Shown: positions 1 through 64,000 of the stretch, one piece after another
How positions within the stretch are numbered: the first letter of the stretch is position 1
How the letters are laid out: every line of letters begins with the position of its first letter
NCBI GenBank assembly: GCA_036722335.1
Contig: DAIMJI010000001.1
Location: 61,915 to 125,914, forward strand
Length of the DNA stretch: 64,000 nucleotides
Origin: Synergistales bacterium
GTDB taxonomy: Bacteria > Synergistota > Synergistia > Synergistales > 79-D21
Direction: 5' to 3'
Translations under genes and position numbers: made by a program
Notes under the pieces: model-generated
The model's database searches: none
Seen by the model: the letters and a program-made list of their open reading frames with translations, nothing else
What the model was told of the DNA's origin: nothing

Positions 1-153
1 TTCCTGGGGCCGGACCACGAGAAGCCCATGTTCCCTCCTCGTATTCGCCCCTGCAACCGTCGAGAAGCCATAGCTCCCGCGACCGTTAGAGACGAGGAAT
101 TCACGTCCGGCCCCTTTTTCGTAGGTGTTGACATCAACTTTCCCAAGGTACAT
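1..153 (-). CDS. Glycogen debranching enzyme family protein, N-terminal fragment (continues beyond window start)
   Basis: Absent from the ORF track because it runs off the edge. Manual minus-strand translation from ATG at 153 gives MYLGKVDVNTYEKGAGREFLVSNGRGSYGFSTVAGANTRREHGLLVVRPQE. The G.Y....V.G.NTRR.HGLL block matches the N-terminal signature I recall for bacterial/archaeal amylo-alpha-1,6-glucosidase (GDE_N). It overlaps the whiA 3' end by 20 nt. Confidence 0.55.
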   Translation of the reverse strand, partial: MYLGKVDVNTYEKGAGREFLVSNGRGSYGFSTVAGANTRREHGLLVVRPQE

Positions 154-1057
154 GGCAACCATCCCCCTTCATGGCGTTTTCCACAAGTCTCCCCAAACGG
201 CTCCACCTATATTCTACTGTACTTTTCGTGACAGGTTTCGAAAGAAGCTGGCCCAATTCACGGAGAGAAATGCTCGGATTATCCAGCCGGACCTGCACCA
301 TTTCCCTGAAAACGGCGGGCAACCTATCCAGGAGCCCGCAGGAACGCACCCTTTCCGCCAGTTCCACCTGCCTTTCAGCTGCATCAAGGCTTTTCCGGAT
401 ATTTGCCGAATCGCAGTTGACCAGCTTGTTTGCCCTGTTCCTCATCGAACGCATCACGGATCTTTCTTCCAGCAATAAACCGGTCCTGAACAACCCCAGT
501 CCTGTGAGGAAAGACACGATTTGTCCTTGATCGCGGATCAGGAGGTCGGTCTGGTTCAAGCGGAAACGTTCCGAAAACCGGACCCCGGATTGCCTGAGGA
601 GAGAGCGCGTCGTCTCCCTTACAAGGCTTTTTCTTTCCTCCATCCGAAGGACGAGGTGATATCCGGTCTGCGGGAGGTAGAGGGACCCTAGGACACCCCA
701 TACTCCCCTGAGCCAGGCCCAACGAGCCTTGGGATTCCTCTCGGGCATTTCACGGCTTGTGCGTAAGGCTTTCTCGAACAAACCCGCTCCCCCTGAAAGC
801 AACGGGCGGCCTTTAAGGTCTGGAGGGACTTTCAGGAATGACCCCAGATCCCCGAGATCCTTCCAGCTCCCGGCGTTCCAAAGGCGGTGAAGGCGCCTGA
901 AAACAAAAAAACGCCGAGTCGAAAGAAGAATCGTCTCCCCTTCAGTCTTTTCCTTCATCGACAGGAGGAGTGCGGCCGCCTCCAGGTCAGACTCTACAGA
1001 ACCTTCAAGGGGGCATTGGAGCCACTCGTCCCAAAGGGCCTCTGGAATCGATCTCAT
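134..1057 (-). CDS. whiA: DNA-binding protein WhiA
   Basis: 307-aa ORF with the C-terminal HTH block LRELGQLLSKPVTKSTVEYRWSRL. It lies in the conserved rapZ-yvcK-whiA arrangement. Confidence 0.9.
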   Translation of the reverse strand: MRSIPEALWDEWLQCPLEGSVESDLEAAALLLSMKEKTEGETILLSTRRFFVFRRLHRLWNAGSWKDLGDLGSFLKVPPDLKGRPLLSGGAGLFEKALRTSREMPERNPKARWAWLRGVWGVLGSLYLPQTGYHLVLRMEERKSLVRETTRSLLRQSGVRFSERFRLNQTDLLIRDQGQIVSFLTGLGLFRTGLLLEERSVMRSMRNRANKLVNCDSANIRKSLDAAERQVELAERVRSCGLLDRLPAVFREMVQVRLDNPSISLRELGQLLSKPVTKSTVEYRWSRLGRLVENAMKGDGCHVPWES

Positions 1058-2160
1058 CTGCCGAATTCTTTCGTATCCCGTGCAACCTTCATGATCGCTT
1101 CGGAAACCCGCTGGGCCTGGTGCCTGACGTGTCCTCCAGGGGTAATCTCAAGGAAGTCCCCGCGGATGACCTGGACATGTGCGCGGGTTAGCCTGTTTTC
1201 TTCCCTCTCATTGATGAGGACCGGTTCCGACCCCGCCTCCCCGTACTTGCTCAGGATTTCCCCCGGGACTTCCGTTTCGTTCACGAGGACGATATCGGGG
1301 TATTGACCCAGAACGTCCCTTATCCACTTGACATGGTCGTATACTGTGAAGCCTTCGGTCTCGCCCGGCTGTGTCATGACGTTTGCCACGTAAATCCTGG
1401 GAGCGTCCGCCTGACGAATCGCCTCGGAGACTCCAGGGACTAGAAGGTTCGGCAGGATGCTCGTGAAAAGGCTTCCGGGGCCAAGTACAATCGCTTCCGA
1501 ATCTGCGATCGCTTCGACCACTTCATTTAATGGCTTGGCATCCGCAGGCTCGAGCCGGACTTCCTTCAATTCCTTCCCATGCCTCGCAACTTCGAGTTCT
1601 CCTCGAAAATGGTTCCCCCTGGAATCCACTCCCGCTATAGTCACAGCTTCCGTCGTCACCGGGAGAACCCTTCCCCGGATTGCGAGCAGTTTGTTCATTT
1701 CTTCCACCGCAAGCCTGAAATCACCTGCCAGTTCAGTAACCGCCAGCAAAACGAGGTTGCCGAGGCTATGGCCTGCAAGATCCCCCTTGTCGAATCGAAA
1801 ATTCAGGATGCTGTTCAGAGCGCTGTCGTTCTCCGCAAGCGCGATGATACAGTTCCTGACATCGCCCGGGGGTAAGACTCCCCATTCGGTCCTCAGTCGT
1901 CCCGAACTTCCTCCTTCGTCCGTCACGGTGACGATTGCCGTGATGTTCCGGGTATACCCCTTCAGTCCCCTAAGGAGCGTCGACAGGCCTGTTCCGCCAC
2001 CCAGGGCGACAACACGGGGTCCTGTTGCCAGGCGGATGCCTATCGCGCTGGACATGATTTCCCTCAGGCCCCGTCGTTTCCTTCCCAAACGTTGCGTCCA
2101 GAGAAGCGCCCCGATCCCGCCCAGAAGGATACCCATACCGAAAGGCAGCAACCACTCCAT
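1054..2160 (-). CDS. yvcK: YvcK/CofD-family gluconeogenesis (cell-shape) factor
   Basis: Carries the LGGGTGLSTLLRGLK motif of the UPF0052/CofD family. I moved the start to ATG 2160 (MEWLLPFGMGILLGG, a TM helix), 2 nt after the rapZ stop. The track start at 2244 would overlap rapZ. Confidence 0.9.
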   Translation of the reverse strand: MEWLLPFGMGILLGGIGALLWTQRLGRKRRGLREIMSSAIGIRLATGPRVVALGGGTGLSTLLRGLKGYTRNITAIVTVTDEGGSSGRLRTEWGVLPPGDVRNCIIALAENDSALNSILNFRFDKGDLAGHSLGNLVLLAVTELAGDFRLAVEEMNKLLAIRGRVLPVTTEAVTIAGVDSRGNHFRGELEVARHGKELKEVRLEPADAKPLNEVVEAIADSEAIVLGPGSLFTSILPNLLVPGVSEAIRQADAPRIYVANVMTQPGETEGFTVYDHVKWIRDVLGQYPDIVLVNETEVPGEILSKYGEAGSEPVLINEREENRLTRAHVQVIRGDFLEITPGGHVRHQAQRVSEAIMKVARDTKEFGR

Positions 2161-2162
2161 CT

Positions 2163-3056
2163 TTACCACACCTGCTCCTTGTCGATATCTCGATGCCTGA
2201 TGACACAGGCATGGCCGGATCGGCCAAGATGCTCGGCAAACCACTCGGCCACCGCCACGGACCTGTGCCTCCCGCCCGTGCAGCCGACCGCGATATGGAT
2301 CTGTGTCTTTCCAGTCCCCTCGTAAAGGGGAATGATAAACTCGAAAAGATCCTTCTGTTTCCTGAGGAATTCCTTTGCGTCAGGCAAAGCTTTCAGGATG
2401 AATTCGACAACCTCCGGATCTCGCCCGCTCAAACCCCTTAACCCCGGCTCGTAATACGGGTTAACTAGGAAACGGACATCCACGAGGTAATCGCAGTCCT
2501 GCGGAATCCCGTGCTTGTACCCGAAAGAGGTCAGGAAGACGGTCAATCTGCCGGGTGGAGTTCCAAGGCTTTCCAGCATTCGCCCCCTCAACTCCGATAG
2601 GTTAAGTCCCGTCGTATCCAAAACGATGTCGGCCGCTTCCTTTAGGGGTGCCAGGCTCTCCCTTTCCCTCTGGATGCCCTCAAGGACCGAAAGGTCGGGG
2701 CCTAGAGGATGTCGCCTCCGAGTGCTTTCAAAACGCCTGATAAGAGCCGCGTCCGAGGCATCGATAAAAATAAGGGCAACACTGGCCAGGCGTCGCTTCA
2801 GGCTTTCCATTACAGCCTCGAGATCCCTCAGGAGATCGTCACCCCGAATATCGACAACGGCCACGACTCCATGGAGCACCGCTGCCCTGTGCCTTCCAAG
2901 GACTTCAACTAATTGAGGCAAAAGCGAGGGCGGGATATTGTCGATGGCGAAAAAACCCTGGTCTTCAAGGATGTGCAGGGCCGTAGATTTTCCCCCGCCA
3001 GACATCCCGGTTATGATCACGATCTTTTCCACACCAGCGTTTCCTGTTCCAGACAT
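2163..3056 (-). CDS. rapZ: RNase adapter / nucleotide-binding protein RapZ (YvcJ)
   Basis: Has Walker A GMSGGGKST and the C-terminal GCTGGRHRSV motif. The internal ATG at 3056 (MSGTGNAG) is preferred over the track start at 3104, which overlaps the upstream gene. Confidence 0.9.
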   Translation of the reverse strand: MSGTGNAGVEKIVIITGMSGGGKSTALHILEDQGFFAIDNIPPSLLPQLVEVLGRHRAAVLHGVVAVVDIRGDDLLRDLEAVMESLKRRLASVALIFIDASDAALIRRFESTRRRHPLGPDLSVLEGIQRERESLAPLKEAADIVLDTTGLNLSELRGRMLESLGTPPGRLTVFLTSFGYKHGIPQDCDYLVDVRFLVNPYYEPGLRGLSGRDPEVVEFILKALPDAKEFLRKQKDLFEFIIPLYEGTGKTQIHIAVGCTGGRHRSVAVAEWFAEHLGRSGHACVIRHRDIDKEQVW

Positions 3057-4397: not shown

Positions 4398-5390
4398 TCA
4401 TCCTCCTAACTGGGACATGTGCTGTGGAGACAGCACGACGTCCTTCCAACATCTCGGCTTTCTCCCCGCTTCCGCGATGATGAGCCTGCGTGCGGCACCG
4501 AGATCCTTTTTTCTGAGCGCTTCCCGCAGGGAAACACCTTCGGCGCTGAAAAGGCAGCTTCTCAACTCTCCCGCGGCGGTTACCCTCAAACGGTTGCAGT
4601 TCTCGCAAAAATGATGCGAAACAGCCGCTATGATCCCAAGCCTTTGGCCCGTTTCAACATTCACGAGGTAACGCGCCGGCCCCTCAGGTATCCCATGGTT
4701 GGGATTGCGCCTGCCCGATGTTTCCGGGATCCATTTTTCCCTGTCCGGCAACCGGTCGACTATCTCGTCGGCCGAGATGAAGCGATTCCTGTTCCAGACC
4801 GATTCGTCAAGGGGCATGAATTCGATGAGCCTCAAGACCGCGTTGCAGGATCCCGCAAACCTTAACAGCTCTGTAATCTCGTCGTCATTGAAATCCCTGA
4901 TGAGGACGGTGTTGATCTTGAGGGGGACACCGGACGCAGCCCTAAGCGCGCGGATCCCCTCCAGGACTTCTTCCAGGCTGCCTCGTCTCGTGAGGGAACG
5001 GAACTTTTCCGGGTTCATCGTGTCGAGGCTGACGTTGATTCCAGACAGCGGAATCTTTGAGAGCTCCTCCGCCGTCTGGAGGAGAAGTGAACCATTCGTG
5101 GTAAGGGCAACGTGAAGATCAGGAAGTTTCTCCACAAGAAGTCTTAAAAAACCGAGCAGCCCTTTTCTTACCATCGGCTCTCCGCCGGTTATCCTGACCT
5201 TCCTGACGCCGAGCTCATGCAACACAAGGCAAAGATCCATGATTTCCTCGTAGCTCAGGATTTCCTCGTGTCCCATGCAAGGGATTCCCTCTTCCGGCAT
5301 GCAATACTGGCATCGATAATTGCATCGGTCTGTGATGGAAATCCTCACATAATCAAGTGTTCGGGCAAAAGAACCCTTCAGTTCGGCCAT
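4398..5390 (-). CDS. moaA: GTP 3',8-cyclase MoaA (radical SAM)
   Basis: Has the YVRISITDRCNYRCQYCMP radical-SAM cluster motif and the C-terminal CENCNRLRVTAAG second cluster. Start taken at ATG 5390 (MAELKGSF); the track start at 5426 is also possible. Confidence 0.9.
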   Translation of the reverse strand: MAELKGSFARTLDYVRISITDRCNYRCQYCMPEEGIPCMGHEEILSYEEIMDLCLVLHELGVRKVRITGGEPMVRKGLLGFLRLLVEKLPDLHVALTTNGSLLLQTAEELSKIPLSGINVSLDTMNPEKFRSLTRRGSLEEVLEGIRALRAASGVPLKINTVLIRDFNDDEITELLRFAGSCNAVLRLIEFMPLDESVWNRNRFISADEIVDRLPDREKWIPETSGRRNPNHGIPEGPARYLVNVETGQRLGIIAAVSHHFCENCNRLRVTAAGELRSCLFSAEGVSLREALRKKDLGAARRLIIAEAGRKPRCWKDVVLSPQHMSQLGG

Positions 5391-7303
5391 TTGTACCCAC
5401 CCATTGTTTCCACTGCTTTCCTCCACGCCGGGTCATCGACGGCTTCAAGGACAGCCTCGATTCCAGGATGAGCGAGAAATTTTTCAGGGATGACCAGTTC
5501 AAAAGGTTCCCATGCCATCGTCACGAAATCCAGCCCAAAGGCATCCGCTGCAGCCCTGATTCCAAGCGCCGTGTCTACAATGCCCGACGCGACCCTGCTC
5601 GCCGCATCCAGATGGGTGATGGCCTGCCCTGAGTAACCAGCGATCCTGGAACGGTCAATGCCCGCTTCCCCGATGAACCAATCCAAAAGGACCCTGGTTC
5701 CTGCCCCGGGTTGGCGGTTCACGATACGAATGCCTTTTTCAACGAGGTCATGAATCCCGGCAAGCCCCTTGGGGTTTCCCCTGGCGACAAGGAATCCCTG
5801 CTCCCTGTAATAGAGAAGGTAGCGGACCCATTTCTCACCGTTTGCCAGTTCCTGTATAAAGGGCTCGTTATACCGGCCTGTTTTCCCGTCGAGGAGATGG
5901 CAGGCAGCCAGGTGCCCCTCTCCCCGGGCAAGGGCAGCGAGCCCCCCCAGGCTCCCGACAGCCCGTATCGAAAGGTCAGCACCTCTTTGGCGGACAGGCG
6001 TCACGATTCTTGAAAAAGCCGGGTCGTCTGAACCTTGGAAGAGGGCTCTTCCCCTCCAGTTGACCTTGCGGGTAAACCACACCGTCAGCCCTGTTCCTTT
6101 AGGGCATTCGACCGTTTCCGGAGGCAAAAGGCAATAGCCGTCTGCCTCATGCATTGCCCACATCGTCGAAGCGCCCGAGGAGAGAGGCCACGTTACCTTT
6201 TTCCCTTCTATTTCGGCGGCCTTCACCCGGAGCCACTCCTCTACCCCGGGCGGCGAAGAGTGCGGGAGCATCAGTTCACATTCCACCACCTCGGAAGCAC
6301 CCACGGCCTGGCGCACCAGGGAATCGTCGTCCGCTTCGAGAAGTGTTCCCGACATGGCATTGACTGCCGGATAAGCCAGGCTCCACACCGCGACTGTAGT
6401 CGACATGGGAAAGCCCGGTATCCCCAGCACGAGGGCCCCCTTGACCTTTCCCAGCATCGCTGGTCTTCCCGGCTTCATCCTCAGCCACCTGAAAAGGAGC
6501 TTGCCCTGCGAGGCAATGACTTCCGCGGTGTGGTCCTTTTTGCCTTTTGCCGTTCCCGCGCCTATCAGGACAAGATCGTACCGTCCGGCTGTCGCGTCGA
6601 GTGTCTTTTCAATCAATTCCGCAGAGTCCGGAAGAATGGGGTGAATATCCAGGGCAATCCCCCACCCCCTGAAGATCCCTTTCAGGAGTGCTGAGTTGCT
6701 CTCCGGCACTTTGCCGCTCACAGCTTCGCCAGTTTCCAGCCACTCCTCCATGGGGCAGATTTCGTCCCCGGTAGGGATAAAAAGGCATTTCGGTTTTTTG
6801 AAAACAGGGACAGCTCCAACTCCAGCGCTCAGCAAAAGGGCGACAAGGGCAGGCCCTACCCGTTCTCCCTTGCGTGCGAGGATCTGTCCTTTCATGACAT
6901 CCTCACCTACGGGCCTGACGTTCGCTCCGGGGGGCAGGCCCCTGGAAAGAAGCACCTCCCCGTTTTCAGTGAGAGCCGTATCCTCCACCATGGCGACCGC
7001 ATCCGCCCAGTCCGGCAGAGGACCTCCCGTATTCACCCACAGGCACCTGTCCCGTCCCATCCTTACAATTGTCGCAGGCGTAGCCCCGCTCGTTTCTCCC
7101 GAAACGACCGCATACCCGTCAACTGCCGAAGCCACGTAGTGAGGCACGTTCCGGTTCGACAGCACATCTTCCGCCAGGAGCAGTTCCAGCGCCTGCTCGG
7201 TGGGAACCAACAGGGGCTTGGGATAGCCGAGTTCCGTGACCGCCTCGAGTATCAGCTTTCTTGCTTCCAGGGTGGATACATGTTCTTTGGCCTGATTCAC
7301 CAT
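5378..7303 (-). CDS. moeA: Molybdopterin molybdenumtransferase MoeA fused to a C-terminal periplasmic-binding-protein-like (molybdate/tungstate-binding type) domain
   Basis: The N-terminal roughly 400 aa have the MoeA fold (PHYVASAVDGYAV, IPTGDE, LIGAGTAKGKKDH). The C-terminal roughly 230 aa (FQGSDDPAF...GSLGGLAALARGEGHLAACHLLD...NRQPGAGTRVLLD) resemble the PBP-like domain known to be fused to MoeA. Confidence 0.85.
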   Translation of the reverse strand: MVNQAKEHVSTLEARKLILEAVTELGYPKPLLVPTEQALELLLAEDVLSNRNVPHYVASAVDGYAVVSGETSGATPATIVRMGRDRCLWVNTGGPLPDWADAVAMVEDTALTENGEVLLSRGLPPGANVRPVGEDVMKGQILARKGERVGPALVALLLSAGVGAVPVFKKPKCLFIPTGDEICPMEEWLETGEAVSGKVPESNSALLKGIFRGWGIALDIHPILPDSAELIEKTLDATAGRYDLVLIGAGTAKGKKDHTAEVIASQGKLLFRWLRMKPGRPAMLGKVKGALVLGIPGFPMSTTVAVWSLAYPAVNAMSGTLLEADDDSLVRQAVGASEVVECELMLPHSSPPGVEEWLRVKAAEIEGKKVTWPLSSGASTMWAMHEADGYCLLPPETVECPKGTGLTVWFTRKVNWRGRALFQGSDDPAFSRIVTPVRQRGADLSIRAVGSLGGLAALARGEGHLAACHLLDGKTGRYNEPFIQELANGEKWVRYLLYYREQGFLVARGNPKGLAGIHDLVEKGIRIVNRQPGAGTRVLLDWFIGEAGIDRSRIAGYSGQAITHLDAASRVASGIVDTALGIRAAADAFGLDFVTMAWEPFELVIPEKFLAHPGIEAVLEAVDDPAWRKAVETMGGYKWPN

Positions 7304-47927: not shown

Positions 47928-49685
47928 TTAGCGGATCCGGACCTTGCCCTGGTAAACCAGTCCCCTGGAACCGTCGACGGTGACCATCATCCCGTCGTCA
48001 AGCATTTTCATCGCGTCTGTCGCCGAAACGACACAAGGGATTCCCATTTCGAGCGCCAGGATTGCCGCATGGCTTGTCAAACCACCCTCTTCGCAGATGA
48101 TCGCTGATGCCTGGCGGATCACATCCACGAAATCGCGGTCAGTTTGTCTTGCGACAAGCACGGCCCCCGGCTTCATCTTGCCGCGGGCCTCCGCAGCCGT
48201 CACCCCTTTGACGACAGGCCCGAAAGCTTCCTTTCTTACAAGGGAAATCCCCTTCACGACAATTCGGCCGACCGTATGGACCTTCACCATATCTGTCGTG
48301 CCGGCAATACCTGTCGGTATCCCGGAAGTCACGACGACGATGTCCCCTTCTGCTGCCAACCCCTCAGCGAGTGTTGCCAGCAGGCCGGATTCAACCATTT
48401 CCTGTTCGTCCTCGTGTTTTTTCCCGGTCAGGAGCGGGACGACGCCCCAGACCAGGGCCAGCTCCCGCCAGGTGCCGGGCTCTACGGTCACACCCGCTAT
48501 CGGGCATCCGGGCCTGTACTTGCTCACCATCCTGGCCGTGCTGCCGCTCTGGGTCAGTGAGAGGATGACCTTGGCCTGCATTTGTTCGGCAATCGTCACA
48601 GCCGCATGGCTAACTGCATCAGGAACGGTCTGGGAAGCCACAGGCGGCAGGGAAGAGGGTCTCTGCCAGACCCTGATTTCCCTTTCGGTCCTGGTGATGA
48701 TGCGGGCCATTGTTTCCACAGCCTGAACCGGATACGTTCCCTTCGCGGTCTCTCCGGAAAGCATGACCGCGTCCGCCCCGTCCAGGACTGCGTTGGCAAC
48801 ATCGTTAACCTCCGCCCTGGTTGGGCGTGGGTTCCTTATCATCGAGTCCAGCATCTGCGTCGCGACGATAACGGGTTTCCCTTGTGAACGTCCCAGGTCG
48901 ACCATCCTCTTCTGGATCAGCGGCACTTCCTCTGCAGGCAGCTCAACACCAAGGTCACCACGGGCAACCATCAGGCCGTCGACCACATCGACGATCTCAT
49001 CAAGCGAAGCGACCGCTTCGCTTGTCTCGATCTTCGCGATGATCTTCATGGCCCCTCCCAGCTCTTCCATGACCCTGCGGACTTCCATGATGTCATCCCG
49101 GCTCCGGACAAAAGAAACGGCGATATAGTCAAGCCCGTTGTCCAGCCCCCAGCGGATGTCCTCCCGGTCCTTCCTGGTCAGGGTCGGGATCTTCAGCTTC
49201 GCCCCGGGTATGCTGACGCCTTTCCTCTCTCCCAGTTCGCCCCCGACCAAAACCCTCATCAAGAGACTTGTCCCCTGAACCTCCAGGACCTTTAGCTGGA
49301 GCGTCCCATCATCGATGAACACGTCCTGGCCCGGCTCAAGTTCCGAACAGATCCCTGGATGGCTAATGCTCACCTGTTTTTCGTCCCCTTCAATCTCTTC
49401 CGAGACGAAGGAGAAGGCCGCGCCCTGGACAAGCTTTACCGGCCTGCCCTCTTTCAAGGTGCCCGTGCGAATTTCCGGGCCTTTCGTATCCAGCACGGTC
49501 GCCAGTGGGACTCCGAGCTGTTTTTCGACCGCCCTGATGTTTTCAAGGTTCTTTCCGTGGCTTTCATAGGAACCGTGGCTGAAATTCAACCGGGCGACAT
49601 TCATCCCCGCTTTGACCATTTCCGCCAGGATTTCTCTCGACCCGCAGGCAGGGCCAAGCGTGCAGACGATCTTAACCTTTTTCAT
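47928..49685 (-). CDS. pyk: Pyruvate kinase with C-terminal PEP-utilising-enzyme mobile domain
   Basis: KIVCTLGPA, MNVARLNFSHG and MVARGDLGVE motifs. The C-terminal roughly 100 aa contain GGLTSHAAILALEMGIPCVV. Confidence 0.96.
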   Translation of the reverse strand: MKKVKIVCTLGPACGSREILAEMVKAGMNVARLNFSHGSYESHGKNLENIRAVEKQLGVPLATVLDTKGPEIRTGTLKEGRPVKLVQGAAFSFVSEEIEGDEKQVSISHPGICSELEPGQDVFIDDGTLQLKVLEVQGTSLLMRVLVGGELGERKGVSIPGAKLKIPTLTRKDREDIRWGLDNGLDYIAVSFVRSRDDIMEVRRVMEELGGAMKIIAKIETSEAVASLDEIVDVVDGLMVARGDLGVELPAEEVPLIQKRMVDLGRSQGKPVIVATQMLDSMIRNPRPTRAEVNDVANAVLDGADAVMLSGETAKGTYPVQAVETMARIITRTEREIRVWQRPSSLPPVASQTVPDAVSHAAVTIAEQMQAKVILSLTQSGSTARMVSKYRPGCPIAGVTVEPGTWRELALVWGVVPLLTGKKHEDEQEMVESGLLATLAEGLAAEGDIVVVTSGIPTGIAGTTDMVKVHTVGRIVVKGISLVRKEAFGPVVKGVTAAEARGKMKPGAVLVARQTDRDFVDVIRQASAIICEEGGLTSHAAILALEMGIPCVVSATDAMKMLDDGMMVTVDGSRGLVYQGKVRIR

Positions 49686-49932
49686 TTTGTGACCTCCCGC
49701 AAAGAATCTTCCCGTGTTTTGTGTAAACCTCCGCCATGCCCCTGATTTTCATGGCGGACGTATGCTCTGTGAATTGGGAAATCCACAATTCTCCAGCATC
49801 CAGTTTTTCTGTATGGCTGAACTTGGTTTCCTGGCCCCGGGTCAACCCTATCACCGTCACCCCGTTTTCCAGTGCCCGAACCACGATGTAGTCGCTCAGG
49901 ACGGAACACACCTCACCAGGTTCTTCTCTCAT
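49672..49932 (-). CDS. mtrB: trp RNA-binding attenuation protein (TRAP, MtrB) homolog
   Basis: The 86-aa ORF reads [62 protein letters not shown]. It aligns by eye, without gaps, to B. subtilis MtrB as I recall it: [62 protein letters not shown]. The 3' end overlaps the pyk start by 14 nt. Confidence 0.85.
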   Translation of the reverse strand: [86 protein letters not shown]

Positions 49933-49955: not shown

Positions 49956-52900
49956 CTAGAGGATCACTTCAACAGCCCCTCCCGACAATTCAGCCAGCCT
50001 GTCCGAGAGGGAAGTCTCCGGTTTTACCCTGATATCCCTGAGACGGACGACCGCGGTCGAGGCTTCGTCCACATACTCGACAAGAACGGGACACGATCCC
50101 GGATGCCCTTTCAATTCCCTGCACATGGCCTTGAAAGGCAAATCGCAATCCTTTGCACGCAGTCTTATCCTGACGAAAGGATCCTGCCGGGAATCGATTT
50201 CGGCAAGGGGGATGATCTCCTCCGCTATGAGGGTCACACCTCCACGATCCTGGACTTTTCCTCGGGCGAAAAACACCTTGCCCGGGTCGAGGATTCCTTT
50301 TACGGCCGGCCAGCTCTTCGGGAAACACACGACCTCAACCTTGGACTCCGTGTCTTCGAACTCAAGGATCCCCATGAGGTCGCCCCGCTTGGTCGTTTTT
50401 TCCCTAAAGCCGAGAAGAAGCCCTCCGATGATCGCCGGCGTCTCCGCAGCCTTCCAGAAAGAAAGGTCCGAAATCCTGCAGGTCGTAAACCTTGAAATTC
50501 GCTCCTCTTCCCGTTCGAGCGGGTGTCCCGATATGAAAAGACCCAGAACTTCCTTTTCCAGGTCGAGAAGTTCGAGAAGGGAAAAATCCTCGCTGGGATC
50601 TAGCCTGGGCTCCTCTTCCGGCAGGTCGTCCACGAGAGCCAGGAGTGAGCGTTGCGCGCCTTCACATTGTTTCTTCTGCGCCCGGTCCACAAGCATGGGG
50701 AGGTTTTCGAGAAGCTGTCTCCTGTTCGGATGAAGGCTGTCGAAGGCTGCTGACTTCACAAGGTTCTCGAGGACCCCCCTGTTCACGGTCCTGAGGTCAA
50801 CCTTGTTCAGGAAATCCCAGAGGGATTGGAAGGTCCCCTTTGACTGGCGGGCTTTCAGTATTGCCTCTACTGCGGTTTCTCCCGCCTTTGCCACCGCTTT
50901 CAAACCGAAGCGTATCACCTTCCCCACCGCGGAGAAAGAGGCGCCCGACTCGTTGACATCCGGCGGCAGCACCTGAGTCCCGGCATTCCGGACCTCCCTG
51001 ACGTACCGGGCTAGGACGTCCATCCTGGATCCGATCTGGCTTGACAGGAACGCGGCAAGGAACTCGGCCTTGTAATGAGCTTTCAGGTAGGCGGTCTGGT
51101 AGCTGATAAGGGCGTATGCCGCGCTGTGGGATTTGTTGAAGCCATAGCCGGCGAACTCCTGGATAAGGTCGAAAATCGATTCGGCGGTGGACTCTTCCAC
51201 TCCGTTATTCAGGCAACCCTCTACGAATTTTTTCCGTTGCTGCTCCATAACTTCCACTTTTTTCTTGCCCATCGCCCGCCTTAGGAGATCGGCTTCGCCG
51301 AGCGAGAACCCTCCCAGGGTCGCTGCTATTTGCATGACCTGCTCCTGGTAAAGGACCACCCCGTAAGTCTCCCTGAGGCATGGCTCCAGGGAAGGATGGG
51401 GATAAACCACTTCGGAGCGGCCATGCTTGCAGTTGATGAACTGGTCCACCATTCCGCTTCCCAGTGGGCCGGGACGGTAAAGAGCCAGGATAGCCACGAG
51501 ATCCTCGAACGAATCCGGCACCATCCGCTTCAGGAGTTGCCTCATCCCCGGCGATTCGAGCTGGAACACCCCCAGGGTATCTGCCCCCTGGAGGAGGCCA
51601 AATGTAAGTGGATCACCGAGCGGAATTGCGTTTATGTCCGGGACTTCCTTCCCGTTAAGCCTGATGTTCTCCAGCGTGTCTTCTATCATCGAAAGGGTCC
51701 TGAGGCCAAGGAAATCCATCTTTACCAGCCCAAGTTTTTCGATCGCTTCCATTCCGAACTGCGTGACGACCTGCCCATCCCCTATTTTCCTGACCGGGAC
51801 GAGCTCCGTCACCTCCACGGGTGAGATCACGACACCTGCCGCGTGCTGGGAACAATGCCTGGCGAGCCCCTCGATGCTCCCCGCCACCTCCAGGAGGTTC
51901 CTGATGGCCGGTTCCTTTTTCCGGAACTCGGCGAGGTCCGGGGAAGCCTCGATGGCTTCATGAATACTCGCGGCCCCTTCCGGCACGCTCTTGGCCACCC
52001 GGTTCACGTCCGCGAGGGGAACTCCCAGGGCCCTTCCCACATCGCGGATCGCCCCCTTGCTCTTCATCCGGTCGAACGTGATGATCTGGGCTACATGGGT
52101 ACGCCCGTATTTTTCGACGACGTATTCCAGGACTTCATCGCGCCTCTTGTCCGAGATATCCGTATCGATATCGGGCATGCTTATCCGCTCCGGGTTGAGG
52201 AAGCGCTCGAAAAGCAGGTGGTAGCGAATAGGATCGAGTTCGGTAATCCGAAGCGCCCAGGCCGCGAGCGACCCCGCGGCGGAACCCCGGCCGGGTCCAA
52301 CGGGAATGCCGCGTGATTTCGCCGCCCGTATGAAATCGGAAACCACCAGGAAGTACCCGGAAAACCCCATCTTCCTGATGACGCCTAGCTCATAGGCCAT
52401 CCTTTCGCGGTATTCGCCTGGGACGGACCCGTTCATCCTCTCTTCCAGGCCCTCCCATGCCAACTTCTCAAGGTAACTCTCCAGGTTCTCTCCCTCGGGG
52501 ACCTCGTAACGGGGAAGACGGTAGACGTTGAAATCCAGCTTCACATCGCATTTTTCGGCAACCTCGACCGTGTTGGTGAGGGCCTCGGGAAGCTCTCGGC
52601 CGAAAAGGGTCCACATTTCGGAAGGGGAGCGCAAATAAAAGTCTGAAGAACCGAACCGATACCGGTTGGGTTCGTCCACGGTCGCGTTCGTCTGGACACA
52701 AAGAAGCACGTCGTGCCAGGAAGCGTCGGATGCATTCAGGTAATGGGCATCGTTCGTCGCAACAAGAGGAATCCCTGTCCTTCTTGAAATCCTGATAATT
52801 CCCTTGTTCACCAGTGCCTGCTCGGGCAAGGCGTTATGCATGATTTCGAGGTAGAAATTCCCCTTGCCCATAATGTCCTGGTACAGGGTCGCCCGCTCTT

Positions 52901-53363
52901 CCGCTCCTTTTTCGTTGCCTTCGAGTATCATCGAAGGGATTTCACCCGCAAGGCAGGCGGAAGATGCGATCAACCCCTTCGAATAACGCGCAAGGAGATC
53001 ATGATCGATACGGGGCTTGTAGTAGAAACCCTCCGTGTTTGCGATCGAGACCAGTTTGACGAGGTTGTGGTAACCTTCAAGGTCACGTGCCAGCAGGACA
53101 AGGTGATTGTTTCCCCCCTTCCTGTCCCTGCAGGTATGTCCGAGCGGATCGATATAGGTTTCGCACCCAAGCAGGGGTTTGACACCGGCAGAAAGGCACT
53201 TTTCATAGAATTCCACGATGCCGTACATGGCCCCATGATCCGTAAGGGCCACGGCGGGTGATCCCCACTCAGCCGCCTTGGCGGCCAGCGCCGAGCAACG
53301 GATGGCTCCGTCGAGAAGGCTGTACTCGCTGTGGACGTGAAGGTGGACAAAAGGTTCCGTCAC
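49956..53363 (-). CDS. dnaE: DNA polymerase III subunit alpha DnaE
   Basis: 1135 aa with an N-terminal PHP domain (FVHLHVHSEYSLLDGA), polymerase core blocks (PDIDTDI, GLVKMDFLGL, FNKSHSAAYA) and a C-terminal OB fold. Confidence 0.97.
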   Translation of the reverse strand: MTEPFVHLHVHSEYSLLDGAIRCSALAAKAAEWGSPAVALTDHGAMYGIVEFYEKCLSAGVKPLLGCETYIDPLGHTCRDRKGGNNHLVLLARDLEGYHNLVKLVSIANTEGFYYKPRIDHDLLARYSKGLIASSACLAGEIPSMILEGNEKGAEERATLYQDIMGKGNFYLEIMHNALPEQALVNKGIIRISRRTGIPLVATNDAHYLNASDASWHDVLLCVQTNATVDEPNRYRFGSSDFYLRSPSEMWTLFGRELPEALTNTVEVAEKCDVKLDFNVYRLPRYEVPEGENLESYLEKLAWEGLEERMNGSVPGEYRERMAYELGVIRKMGFSGYFLVVSDFIRAAKSRGIPVGPGRGSAAGSLAAWALRITELDPIRYHLLFERFLNPERISMPDIDTDISDKRRDEVLEYVVEKYGRTHVAQIITFDRMKSKGAIRDVGRALGVPLADVNRVAKSVPEGAASIHEAIEASPDLAEFRKKEPAIRNLLEVAGSIEGLARHCSQHAAGVVISPVEVTELVPVRKIGDGQVVTQFGMEAIEKLGLVKMDFLGLRTLSMIEDTLENIRLNGKEVPDINAIPLGDPLTFGLLQGADTLGVFQLESPGMRQLLKRMVPDSFEDLVAILALYRPGPLGSGMVDQFINCKHGRSEVVYPHPSLEPCLRETYGVVLYQEQVMQIAATLGGFSLGEADLLRRAMGKKKVEVMEQQRKKFVEGCLNNGVEESTAESIFDLIQEFAGYGFNKSHSAAYALISYQTAYLKAHYKAEFLAAFLSSQIGSRMDVLARYVREVRNAGTQVLPPDVNESGASFSAVGKVIRFGLKAVAKAGETAVEAILKARQSKGTFQSLWDFLNKVDLRTVNRGVLENLVKSAAFDSLHPNRRQLLENLPMLVDRAQKKQCEGAQRSLLALVDDLPEEEPRLDPSEDFSLLELLDLEKEVLGLFISGHPLEREEERISRFTTCRISDLSFWKAAETPAIIGGLLLGFREKTTKRGDLMGILEFEDTESKVEVVCFPKSWPAVKGILDPGKVFFARGKVQDRGGVTLIAEEIIPLAEIDSRQDPFVRIRLRAKDCDLPFKAMCRELKGHPGSCPVLVEYVDEASTAVVRLRDIRVKPETSLSDRLAELSGGAVEVIL

Positions 53364-61464: not shown

Positions 61465-62388
61465 CTATCCCTCCAAGGCACCCTGGACAGGTGCCGTTTC
61501 CGTCTTGACATCGAGTGCAAGCTCAAGGGCCCGGACTGCGACCCGAAGCTGGCTTTCGTCCGGCTCCCGGGTCGTCAGGTACTGGAGCCACAATGTGGGG
61601 CACATGATCCATTTGCCGGCTCTAGGGAATCGTGAGGCCGCCCTGATGATTTCGTATGAAATTCCCACCACAAAGGGCAGGAGGAGAATACGGCTGCCGA
61701 CGCGCCACCACAAGGTGCCGTCCCCGGCCAGCGAGAAGACCACGATGCTGACACCAACGACAACTAGGAGGAAGGAGGTTCCGCAACGCGTGTGGAAACG
61801 TGAAAATCCCTTAAGGGATCCCATGTCATCCAGGGGCAAGCCTGACTCGTAGGCGTTGATCGTCTTGTGCTCGGCCCCGTGATACTCGAAAACTCGCCGC
61901 ATATCCTTCCACATCCCGATGATCCCGATATAGGCGACAAAGACTGCTGCCCGGAAAAACCCTTCTATGGAACGCCCCCCCCACGTCTTTCCCCAGTCCG
62001 GCCCAACGATCCTGTCAGTCATCCAGACCGGGAAAGCCACGAAAAGCCCCGCGACAAGAAGGAGGGCAATGACAACCGTCAAGACCATCTCCCACCATGA
62101 AACCTTTTCTTCCTGTCCAAGGGAGACCTCCGCGGAAAGGCTCAGGGCCCTAAAACCAACGACCATCATTTCCGCCATCGTGGCAAGCCCTCGCAAAACG
62201 GGGTATTTCCAGACACCTACCGAAGCCCATGGCCGATTGGGCCAAACCTTCTCGAAAAGAGTGCCCGCCTCTTCCCTCACGGCAAGGCCCCAGCTTGCCG
62301 GGCCACGCATCAGGACCCCCTCTATCACGGCCTGCCCCCCCACCGGGAGTTTCTCAGGCTCAAGGGCAAGAAAGGAAAGGGAAGCCAC
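61465..62388 (-). CDS. DUF1385 family membrane protein
   Basis: VGGQAVIEGVLMRG near the N-terminus, EYHGAEHKTINAYE, and several TM helices. I moved the start to GTG 62388, the first canonical start after the thyX stop. The track start at 62637 overlaps thyX by 221 nt. Confidence 0.78.
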   Translation of the reverse strand: MASLSFLALEPEKLPVGGQAVIEGVLMRGPASWGLAVREEAGTLFEKVWPNRPWASVGVWKYPVLRGLATMAEMMVVGFRALSLSAEVSLGQEEKVSWWEMVLTVVIALLLVAGLFVAFPVWMTDRIVGPDWGKTWGGRSIEGFFRAAVFVAYIGIIGMWKDMRRVFEYHGAEHKTINAYESGLPLDDMGSLKGFSRFHTRCGTSFLLVVVGVSIVVFSLAGDGTLWWRVGSRILLLPFVVGISYEIIRAASRFPRAGKWIMCPTLWLQYLTTREPDESQLRVAVRALELALDVKTETAPVQGALEG

Positions 62389-62416
62389 GTCTTTGAAGAT
62401 TCGCGACAGGCGGGTT

Positions 62417-63112
62417 CTAGTGGGCAGCAAGGAGGTCCTCCAGCCCTGAATAGGGGGCACCACAAGGTTTTGCTTCTGAGCAGACACCCTCGGTAACGCA
62501 GGACGGGCCGGCTTTTGCGAAAAGGGCAGGGGCTTTTTCCCTGGAAAGCAAAAGCATCTGCCTGGCGACGTCCCTGATTTCCCACTGGGCCCTCTTGCAT
62601 AGCCTAAGAGCGAAAAAATGCAGGAGTTCCCTGGCATTCATCGTCACCACCAGGTGCGTCTCGCAGGCGTTGGGCAGGACAAACCTCGCATCCTCCTGCG
62701 GAATACCCAGATCCAGGAGGGATGCGTAAGCTTCATAGGATTTCTCCATGGCCTCCTTGAATAGGCCGCTCGCTTCGGGTAAGGACTCGATCGTGCCTGG
62801 AACGACATATTCCGGCCTGTCCGCCCTGACGTAGCGTTGGCTCTGCTGGCTGAAGCTGGCTATCCTGTGCCGCACCAGCTGGTGCGAACATGCCCGGCTA
62901 ATGCCATCGACGGCAAAAACGAAGGATGCGTGCTCGAAAGGGGAAAGGTGTCCGCTTCGCCTAAGGTGCTTCAAAAGGCGCTCGGCCTCCTCAGCGGTCA
63001 CTTCCCCCGCAAGGTCCGCAGCCGAACCCGGGCTGTAGCAAAGACGGGCCGCAGCTGCGACAAGCCTGTCGGGTTCCGGCGTAGATGAAATGAGTCTAAC
63101 CAGGGCAGCCAT
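62417..63112 (-). CDS. thyX: FAD-dependent thymidylate synthase ThyX
   Basis: ThyX signature RHRIASFSQQSQRY (RHRxxSxxxxSxR). Confidence 0.95.
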   Translation of the reverse strand: MAALVRLISSTPEPDRLVAAAARLCYSPGSAADLAGEVTAEEAERLLKHLRRSGHLSPFEHASFVFAVDGISRACSHQLVRHRIASFSQQSQRYVRADRPEYVVPGTIESLPEASGLFKEAMEKSYEAYASLLDLGIPQEDARFVLPNACETHLVVTMNARELLHFFALRLCKRAQWEIRDVARQMLLLSREKAPALFAKAGPSCVTEGVCSEAKPCGAPYSGLEDLLAAH

Positions 63113-63141
63113 GTTATTCCTACCCCCCCGTTAAATTGTTA

Positions 63142-63167
63142 TAAAAAAAGGGAGCTTGCGCTCCCCC
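63142..63167 (-). terminator. Rho-independent terminator downstream of rpmE
   Basis: Minus-strand stem GGGAGC/GCUCCC with loop GCAA, followed by U7 (plus-strand A-run 63143-63149). Confidence 0.75.
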
Positions 63168-63404
63168 CTAGTTCTCTTCTGTTTCTTTCCTCTGGCCGTA
63201 ATCCATCCCGGCGTATTTCTTCTGGAATTTTTCCAGCCGGCCGGCTTCTGAAACTACGCGCCCTTTCTTTCCCGTGTAGAAGGGATGACAGGCGTTGCAG
63301 ACCACAACCTTTAGTTCTTTGCTCGTTGAGCGGGTTTCGAAAGTATTGCCGCAAGCACAAACAACTTTGCAATCTTCATAACGCGGATGGATATCCTTTT
63401 TCAT
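63168..63404 (-). CDS. rpmE: 50S ribosomal protein L31 (Zn-ribbon type)
   Basis: MKKDIHPRY...[12 protein letters not shown]...[11 protein letters not shown], with two Cys pairs. Confidence 0.96.
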
Positions 63405-63452
63405 GATGGTGCACCTCCATAGGAACTTTTCTCAGATCACACACAGAAGCAA

Positions 63453-63481
63453 ACTTTAGCACAGACGGTGTCTCATGACAA
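63453..63481 (-). promoter_or_regulatory. Sigma-70-type promoter for rpmE
   Basis: The minus strand reads TTGTCA (63481-63476), 17 nt of spacer, then TAAAGT (63458-63453), in the 84-nt gap between the HutP-family gene and rpmE. Confidence 0.45.
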
Positions 63482-63488
63482 GAGAGTT

Positions 63489-64000
63489 TCAGATATGCAT
63501 GACCCCCAGGCCGCATCTCTCATGATGGGCGACCGCATGATAGGCCGTGTCGCCGACCATGGACACCGCGATCCAGCTCGAATTCCTGACAATCGCAAGC
63601 TTTGCGCCTATGCTCGCTTCAAGTGTCCCAAGCGAAATGAATCCGTTGATCGCTTCAAGTGCCGCGTGCATCAGGGCGTGCATTTCCCGAGGCTTCTTGT
63701 CCACTACGCCGGCATTGAGCGCCGCCCCGACAAGGGCTCGCGTGATCTTTTGGGGTAGATCACTTGCCACTCCCCCCACTTCTGTAGCCACAGCTTTCCA
63801 GCCTTCACCCACCAGGCAGGATTTCAACTCCTCTTCCGAATTTTTATCGGTTGTACAGGAAAGCAGCAGGGCTGCACGGCCAACCTGGCTTTCCTCCGTG
63901 AACCTTAGCCTGACATTGAGCTCGAAACCGCCAGGGTGCCGCTCGTGTCCTCTTTGCGTTTCTTCCCTCGTCCGTTGAGTCTCCTCCGGGGTGGGGACCG
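63489..64000 (-). CDS. HutP-family RNA-binding antiterminator-like protein (5' end outside the window or non-canonical)
   Basis: The C-terminal part (MHALMHAALEAINGF...WIAVSMVGDTAYHAVAHHERCGLGVMHI) parallels B. subtilis HutP as I recall it (SHALYHATMEALHGV...WIAVSLYGTIG...HETFGVGINHI). The same frame stays open to nt 64000 and encodes VGRAALLLSCTTDKNSEEELKSCLVGEGWKAV, which parallels IGRLSVLLLLNEAE...ERDGWKV. The protein therefore starts upstream of the track TTG at 63827. Confidence 0.72.
   Translation of the reverse strand, partial: VPTPEETQRTREETQRGHERHPGGFELNVRLRFTEESQVGRAALLLSCTTDKNSEEELKSCLVGEGWKAVATEVGGVASDLPQKITRALVGAALNAGVVDKKPREMHALMHAALEAINGFISLGTLEASIGAKLAIVRNSSWIAVSMVGDTAYHAVAHHERCGLGVMHI

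Follow-up and report, generated by a model that had tools for sequence, protein, structure and literature searches.

The closest described relative of the gene considered here is HutP, which has been studied almost solely in Bacillus as a histidine-specific antiterminator. Each face of HutP recognises UAG-N4-UAG-N4-UAG, and two such sites, 12–17 nt apart, flank a terminator (PMC2425495); the mechanism is described in that paper and in PMC12591593. Bacillus subtilis and Geobacillus HutP are represented in the PDB by entries 1VEA, 1WMQ, 4H4L and 4OK9. The family is small: our HMMER search of 1.84 billion representative proteins found 89 cluster representatives at E<=1e-3, of which about five have the long form described below. 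We analysed a stretch of 64,000 nt from a Synergistales bacterium (assembly GCA_036722335.1, contig DAIMJI010000001.1, positions 61,915 to 125,914; hereafter the window), which ends within a minus-strand HutP-family gene that lies next to rpmE and shows no canonical start codon inside the window. Our results indicate that this gene is intact and encodes a long-form HutP-family protein, probably with a variant ligand pocket, and suggest that its product may be an RNA-binding regulator with targets elsewhere in the genome.

The minus-strand open reading frame (ORF) ends with a TGA stop at 63489–63491 and remains open for 170 codons to 63998 at the window edge. A codon-by-codon check bears out the original prediction in that no ATG, GTG or TTG occurs upstream of the in-frame TTG at 63827 as far as base 64000. 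A homology search returned a protein of 188 amino acids (P0001) that is 100% identical to the window fragment across the fragment's full length and is encoded in at least six independent public assemblies (L001–L006), whose DNA is 99.87–99.9% identical to the window tail over 4–10.5 kb. Window base 64000 corresponds to base 1390 of L001, where an in-frame ATG is found at base 1335, 55 nt past the window edge, preceded by GGAGGGGAGAAAG with a GGAGG Shine–Dalgarno (SD) sequence. We regard it as practically certain that this is an intact protein-coding gene cut by the window boundary. The missing start is a window-edge artefact with a trivial cause, and is in itself immaterial. The original prediction had offered either an N-terminal extension that starts past base 64000 or a non-standard start. 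The former is what we find, and the latter is not needed. The pseudogene that it had also considered, with a stop and no start beyond the edge, is refuted by the frame being open to the ATG in L001–L006. Extending the sequence as it had proposed also identified the upstream gene, a divergent TAXI-type TRAP solute-binding gene (hereafter the TAXI gene).

The assignment to the HutP family, which had been made from the letters of the sequence alone, is well supported. The Pfam HutP model (PF09021) matches over its whole profile (1–128 of 128) with E=1.2e-38 and 132.7 bits against a cut-off of 25, so that the outcome named beforehand as fatal to the assignment, no match to the family model, did not occur. 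The match covers residues 39–167 of the fragment and leaves 38 residues near the window edge outside the domain. A phmmer search of PDB sequences found only HutP chains (4ok9, 1vea and 1wmq, E 8e-12 to 2e-10). An AlphaFold2 (AF2) model built on 63 homologues has a core with predicted local distance difference test (pLDDT) scores mostly above 90, with three 10-residue blocks at 61–80, and its top 11 Foldseek matches in the PDB are all HutP (E 4e-9 to 4e-6, template modelling (TM) scores of 0.72–0.80 normalised to target length). The predicted structure has the HutP alpha/beta fold, i.e. a four-stranded antiparallel sheet flanked by helices. The domain also holds a histidine triad (H126, H130 and H178) and an invariant C-terminal block, GDTAYHAVAHHERCGLGVMHI, across 63 sequences. 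Profile, alignment and model agree in placing the window protein as a true member of the HutP family with a predicted HutP fold.

We then compared the window protein with Bacillus HutP. Both share the G-R, W, H-A-L-x-H-A and G-x-G-x-x-H-I blocks and the histidine triad, but they differ in that (i) they are only 29–35% identical, and the window protein scores 58 bits against the cut-off of 155 of the NCBIfam HutP equivalog (NF002838); (ii) the window clade has 43–79 extra N-terminal residues; (iii) a 4-residue deletion relative to B. subtilis HutP removes ‘TRGE’, and with it Arg88, while Arg98 is aligned to an invariant alanine (Ala147); and (iv) the window gene is not the first of a hut operon and is not followed by a dual site of three UAG-N4 repeats or by a terminator. 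The B. subtilis sequence used is in agreement with the alignment to 1vea, and its residue numbering was checked. The counterparts of B. subtilis His73, His77 and His138 in the window protein are H126, H130 and H178, and none of the three varies among 63 clade members. These three histidines reportedly bind the divalent metal, and Arg88 and Arg98 are reported to hold L-histidine in Bacillus HutP, findings ascribed to Kumarevel et al. 2004/2005. If these roles are right, the window protein retains the metal site and lacks the L-histidine pocket. Our literature search found no confirmation of the roles of His73, His77, His138, Arg88, Arg98, Thr99 or Glu137. Judged by score and alignment, the window protein is not an orthologue of HutP in the sense of the hut antiterminator.

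The best 120 homologues are 169–214 amino acids long and every named one comes from Synergistota; a cultured species, Aminivibrio pyruvatiphilus, is among the carriers. A scan of GTDB with one genome per species returned 55 loci that are all from Synergistota, a uniformity that the design of the scan in part imposes. At about 49 of 53 loci, an SD sequence precedes an ORF that starts with the consensus M-I-W-K-K-I-F-(G/N)-x-P. This motif is followed by an acidic, disordered linker of variable length and sequence, then by an ELxVxIxI segment, and finally by the HutP domain. In the window protein the segment reads FELNVRLRF and is a conserved stretch of alternating hydrophobic residues ahead of the domain. 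The extension before the QVGR motif spans 43–79 amino acids, with a median net charge of -7 and an aspartate plus glutamate content of 24%. Residues 1–36 have pLDDT values below 50 in AF2 and appear disordered; the N-terminal motif is not docked on the core in the AF2 monomer. The HutP-like core is 55–82% identical across loci, comparable to PrfA (57–92%), which argues for a constrained, non-accessory role. By these features the window protein is the local member of a long-form HutP branch of Synergistota. Public databases list the gene under ‘HutP family protein’ or under ‘hut operon positive regulator’, and our search of the literature for HutP in Synergistota or for ‘HutP-like’ proteins returned nothing relevant.

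The gene order at the locus is TAXI gene (divergent), HutP-like gene, rpmE, thyX, DUF1385, prfA and prmC (Table 1). The rpmE gene stands directly after the HutP-like gene in 54 of the 55 GTDB loci, where the genes downstream are those of the window, and the TAXI gene lies upstream in about 48 of the 52 loci that have enough flanking sequence. Two further loci (L064 and L065, 56% identity) have a different upstream gene, yet keep rpmE–thyX–DUF1385–prfA–prmC. No hut genes were found among the 34 window ORFs scanned with Pfam (nearly all long ones) or at the 55 related loci. The gene is not the first of a hutPHUIGM-type operon, and Pfam annotation of the downstream genes confirms the earlier remark that rpmE, and not a hut operon, lies next door. 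Taken together, the long-form architecture, the loss of the histidine pocket and the housekeeping synteny define, at the level of sequence, an undescribed variant of the HutP family.

Table 1. Features of the HutP-like locus in the window and of related loci (all window features are on the minus strand; L numbers denote related contigs)
Feature	Position	Strand	Basis
Long-form HutP-family gene, in-window 3' 512 nt of 567 nt (188 codons + stop)	63489..64000	-	P0001 and L001–L006
5' 55 nt of the HutP-family gene including ATG	beyond the window, virtual position 64055	-	L001–L006
HutP domain, full-length PF09021 match	63498..63884	-	Pfam, PDB chains 4ok9/1vea/1wmq, AF2, Foldseek
In-window N-terminal extension: acidic disordered linker (residues 20 to ~44) and FELNVRLRF segment	63885..64000	-	alignments, AF2
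rpmE promoter, TTGTCA-17 nt-TGcTAAAGT, extended -10	63453..63481	-	consensus scan
rpmE, ribosomal protein L31, CxC...CxxC zinc-ribbon type	63168..63404	-	Pfam Ribosomal_L31 E=1.1e-30
Intrinsic terminator right after rpmE, GGGGGAGC-GCAA-GCTCCC then T7	63148..63169	-	conserved in most related loci
thyX, flavin-dependent thymidylate synthase	62417..63112	-	Pfam Thy1 5e-77; TIGR02170 208 bits vs 88
MtrB/TRAP homologue	49672..49932	-	Pfam TrpBP 6e-37; NCBIfam MtrB equivalog 127 bits vs 117
Short-form HutP-family genes in mad operons	L068 4648-5112; L073 3392-3865; L075 3193-3645		
ppnP (pyrimidine/purine nucleoside phosphorylase), 15-35 nt downstream, replacing rpmE	L059 2303-2611; L066 ~5320-5640; L067		

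Other members of the family occur as short forms. Those of L068, L073, L075, L062 and L070 are 41–47% identical to the window protein (E 1e-25 to 1e-28), which is closer than Bacillus HutP, and they share with it the 4-residue-shorter loop and a C-terminus of the type F/Y-H...H-x-R-x-G-L-G-V-M-H-I. By contrast, they are without the N-terminal motif and the acidic linker, are 142–157 amino acids long and lie within catabolic operons, whereas the Synergistota form is a stand-alone gene in a housekeeping locus. On three unrelated contigs, a short form (41–44% identical to the window protein) is flanked by madB (OAD_beta) on one side and madA on the other within malonate decarboxylase operons, and another lies within a cluster of CoA-transferase, CitMHS, acyl-CoA dehydrogenase and ETF genes. 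In L068 and L075, an AG-rich tract and a terminator hairpin follow the short-form gene. The arrangement is that of the classical hutP locus, with another substrate; it supports a view of the family as ligand-gated antiterminators and suggests that a malonate-responsive antiterminator of the HutP type may operate in mad operons. Since family members occupy malonate, acyl-CoA and pyrimidine catabolic operons, ligand specificity in the family is clearly not fixed on histidine. The Synergistota branch, which is widespread in that phylum, has left the operon context and has gained the N-terminal peptide and the acidic disordered linker.

Signals of transcription were inspected around the HutP-like gene, rpmE and thyX. 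A TATAAT box stands about 40 nt ahead of the start of the HutP-like gene, whose leader is short. The spacer between it and rpmE is 61–232 nt long across loci, and 53 of the 55 Synergistota spacers contain TTGnnn-17-TGnTAnnnT at 42–70 nt before the rpmE ATG; the window copy begins 7 nt past the HutP-like stop codon. This conserved promoter makes rpmE an independent transcription unit. In short-spacer species, and at the group-A loci, the HutP-like gene and rpmE are not separated by a terminator, and a degree of read-through from the former into the latter is likely there. The rpmE leader of about 48 nt (within the region 63405–63481 together with the promoter) is itself conserved throughout the phylum, with pyrimidine-rich and GGAGGTG blocks; it matches none of the L31 leaders in Rfam and could be an undescribed autoregulatory leader of L31.

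Downstream of rpmE, thyX heads the thyX–DUF1385–prfA–prmC string and starts 55 nt past the rpmE stop codon in the window. The terminator that directly follows rpmE is a strong one. In many Synergistota (L007–L060 set), thyX starts 15–55 nt later, which leaves too little room for a promoter (in the window, the interval from rpmE to thyX is 63113–63167). Transcription probably has to pass the rpmE terminator for the string, including the essential release factor RF1, to be expressed. In a subgroup of loci, L015–L025 and L052, that terminator is followed by another conserved hairpin, TTTCAGCCGGAGCCGC...GCGACGCTGGCTGTTTTTT.

We also searched for potential RNA target sites. NAG-N4-NAG-N4-NAG occurs 22 times on both strands of the window against 34 +/- 7 in shuffled sequences, and the 64 kb contain neither dual NAG sites nor a strict triple UAG. 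The 55 related loci (527 kb) have zero dual sites against 2.2 expected. Neither the HutP-like leader nor the TAXI leader nor the HutP-like/rpmE spacer shows an excess of three AG repeats at periods of 4–10 nt, and no periodic AG triplets occur near the rpmE terminator. An AG-rich tract before the rpmE terminator was considered as a binding site and rejected: it follows the codon phase of the Lys/Glu/Gln-rich L31 tail, and it has no regular run of three AG at periods of 5–8 nt in this genome. An Rfam scan of L001 (bases 1–3000, E up to 10) returned no family at threshold; a match to L31-Actinobacteria (19 bits against a threshold of 35, inside the TAXI gene) is noise. Instead of a terminator flanked by dual triplets, the spacer downstream of the HutP-like gene is filled by the rpmE promoter and leader. 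Alignment of the TAXI mRNA leaders revealed a conserved promoter and SD sequence only.

These results separate two claims of the original prediction. Its view that rpmE is not the RNA target agrees with the data: nothing points to rpmE, which has its own promoter, and the spacer has neither a terminator nor a NAG-repeat site. Its label of the window protein as a NAG-triplet RNA-binding regulator is an extrapolation, given the score below the equivalog cut-off, the missing arginines (with the roles given above) and the lack of NAG-repeat sites in the window and in the 527 kb; the paired clusters of triplets for which it had proposed a search were found in neither.

The best overall explanation, which we consider reasonably probable, is that an intact long-form HutP gene encodes a metal- and ligand-gated RNA-binding hexamer with unlinked targets. 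The trans-acting mechanism, proposed by analogy, is held more tentatively, at somewhat below an even chance. Under this mechanism, (i) the protein would assemble into a hexamer, as HutP does; (ii) the hexamer would bind single-stranded RNA only with a divalent metal and a small ligand; (iii) the ligand would be other than histidine; (iv) the RNA targets would be unlinked, and the protein, like TRAP, would act in trans rather than on rpmE next door; and (v) the acidic N-terminal tail might plausibly modulate RNA access or recruit a partner. The literature offers a single hint of a role for the tail: going by its title, Oda et al. 2004 link the N-terminus of HutP to RNA binding. If the branch does bind RNA in trans, this little-studied phylum would have a second global regulator of the TRAP kind.

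A homologue of MtrB (TRAP) is encoded in the same window. The original prediction had noted this homologue 14 kb away, and it is real: it scores above the MtrB equivalog cut-off and lies outside a trp or mtrA context, between dnaE (49956–53363) and a pyruvate kinase gene (47928–49685). No trp or mtrA genes and no TRAP-type (G/U)AG arrays of at least five triplets were found in the 64-kb window. TRAP resembles the proposed regulator in function only: it forms a ring that is gated by a ligand, recognises repeated NAG triplets and regulates several unlinked transcripts in trans. Its fold and family are unrelated to those of HutP, and we see no evidence of cooperation between the two. The earlier statement that this genome encodes two NAG-triplet regulators outside their textbook operons is right as far as family membership goes; NAG-triplet binding by the window protein is an extrapolation.

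Several points weigh against the explanation that we favour. RNA binding is predicted from family membership, and the reading of the metal site and of the histidine pocket depends on the reported residue roles. Of this genome, no more than 64 kb was covered by the search for binding sites. The strict adjacency to rpmE, in 54 of 55 GTDB loci and in L064 and L065, could reflect a link missed by a search for NAG repeats. Moreover, the genome-contig scan used peptide patterns of this clade, and its ‘all Synergistota’ outcome is partly true by construction.

Among the alternatives, sensing of pyrimidines or nucleosides survives best. It concerns the ligand and is compatible with the RNA-binding hexamer, but we consider it unlikely on present evidence. 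Two deep long-form branches (L059; L066/L067) have ppnP in place of rpmE; one of them (L066/L067) is divergent from pyrR–pyrB–pyrC–pyrK–pyrD; a further relative (P0126, 47% identity) ends an operon of preT-like, preA and dihydropyrimidinase genes; and thyX is the second gene downstream of the HutP-like gene in the main clade. The closest relatives away from the rpmE locus thus point weakly to pyrimidines. The sample is small, however, with three or four contexts only, and P0124 has an unrelated gene context. In addition, ppnP scores 74 bits where its equivalog model requires 143, despite a strong match to Pfam Ppnp (2e-35), and thyX is separated from the HutP-like gene by rpmE, a promoter and a terminator. 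A bolder version, which we regard as improbable, is that the protein forms a phylum-wide, housekeeping, trans-acting RNA-binding hexamer gated by pyrimidines or nucleosides, or by a transition metal at its His/Cys-rich C-terminus, with the acidic tail as an RNA-mimicking autoinhibitor or partner tether. If true, this would make the protein the first of a new class of global post-transcriptional regulators that use the HutP scaffold.

Alternatively, the protein could be a true HutP, i.e. an antiterminator activated by histidine and Mg2+ that acts in trans on a hut operon elsewhere in the genome. Synergistota are amino-acid fermenters. The HutP fold, the conserved histidine triad and the public annotation of relatives as ‘hut operon positive regulator’ are consistent with this, but the equivalog score falls nearly 100 bits short, the insertion that bears Arg88 is absent and Arg98 is replaced by alanine (again with the residue roles given above). 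None of the 55 loci contains a hut gene, and relatives with the same 4-residue-shorter loop sit in malonate, acyl-CoA and pyrimidine operons. We therefore give this alternative little credence.

An equally slim chance is left for a cis regulator that controls the translation of rpmE, or else read-through past its terminator into thyX–DUF1385–prfA–prmC. Such a role would explain the adjacency to rpmE, which persists in L064 and L065 despite a different upstream gene, and would fit the likely co-transcription at group-A loci as well as the conserved rpmE/thyX terminator, which in many loci leaves too little room for a promoter. However, rpmE has its own conserved promoter, which starts 3–159 nt past the HutP-like stop codon; neither its leader nor its terminator region contains periodic NAG triplets, and the AG-rich tract is explained by codon phase. 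Two deep branches of the clade have ppnP instead of rpmE, and housekeeping genes can stay syntenic with no functional link between them.

Finally, a non-canonical start inside the window or a start-less pseudogene, for which the lack of any ATG, GTG or TTG in 63828–64000 could be cited, is barely conceivable: the frame reaches an ATG with a GGAGG SD in six near-identical contigs, which makes both unnecessary, the N-terminal peptide that begins there is conserved throughout the clade, near-cognate codons ahead of the TTG at 63827 are limited to two CTG (at 63869 and 63866), both in helix 1 of the HutP domain, and the domain begins 19 codons upstream of that TTG, so that a start there would remove its first 19 residues.

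Some further observations concern the neighbouring genes. The TAXI gene, at 162–1124 of L001 and thus past the window end, is 93–96% identical among close relatives. In L010 and L042, the two loci inspected, no permease gene adjoins it; in L010 (3059–5789) its neighbour is a formate–tetrahydrofolate (THF) ligase gene. The L001–L003 assemblies end about 110–160 nt past the TAXI gene and L006 about 200 nt past it, while L004 and L005 end within it; contig ends just past this gene hint at a repeat there. A metagenome-assembled genome (MAG) of Thermovirgaceae (L040, 4218–5934) has a 1.7-kb insertion with a transposase-like ORF between the TAXI and HutP-like genes. For DUF1385, the mechanically called ORF (61465–62637, minus strand) has 390 amino acids and overlaps thyX by 221 nt, while public gene calls have 321 amino acids, start inside this ORF and overlap thyX by 14 nt; the 390-amino-acid form is probably spurious, an effect of high GC content on the ORF finder.

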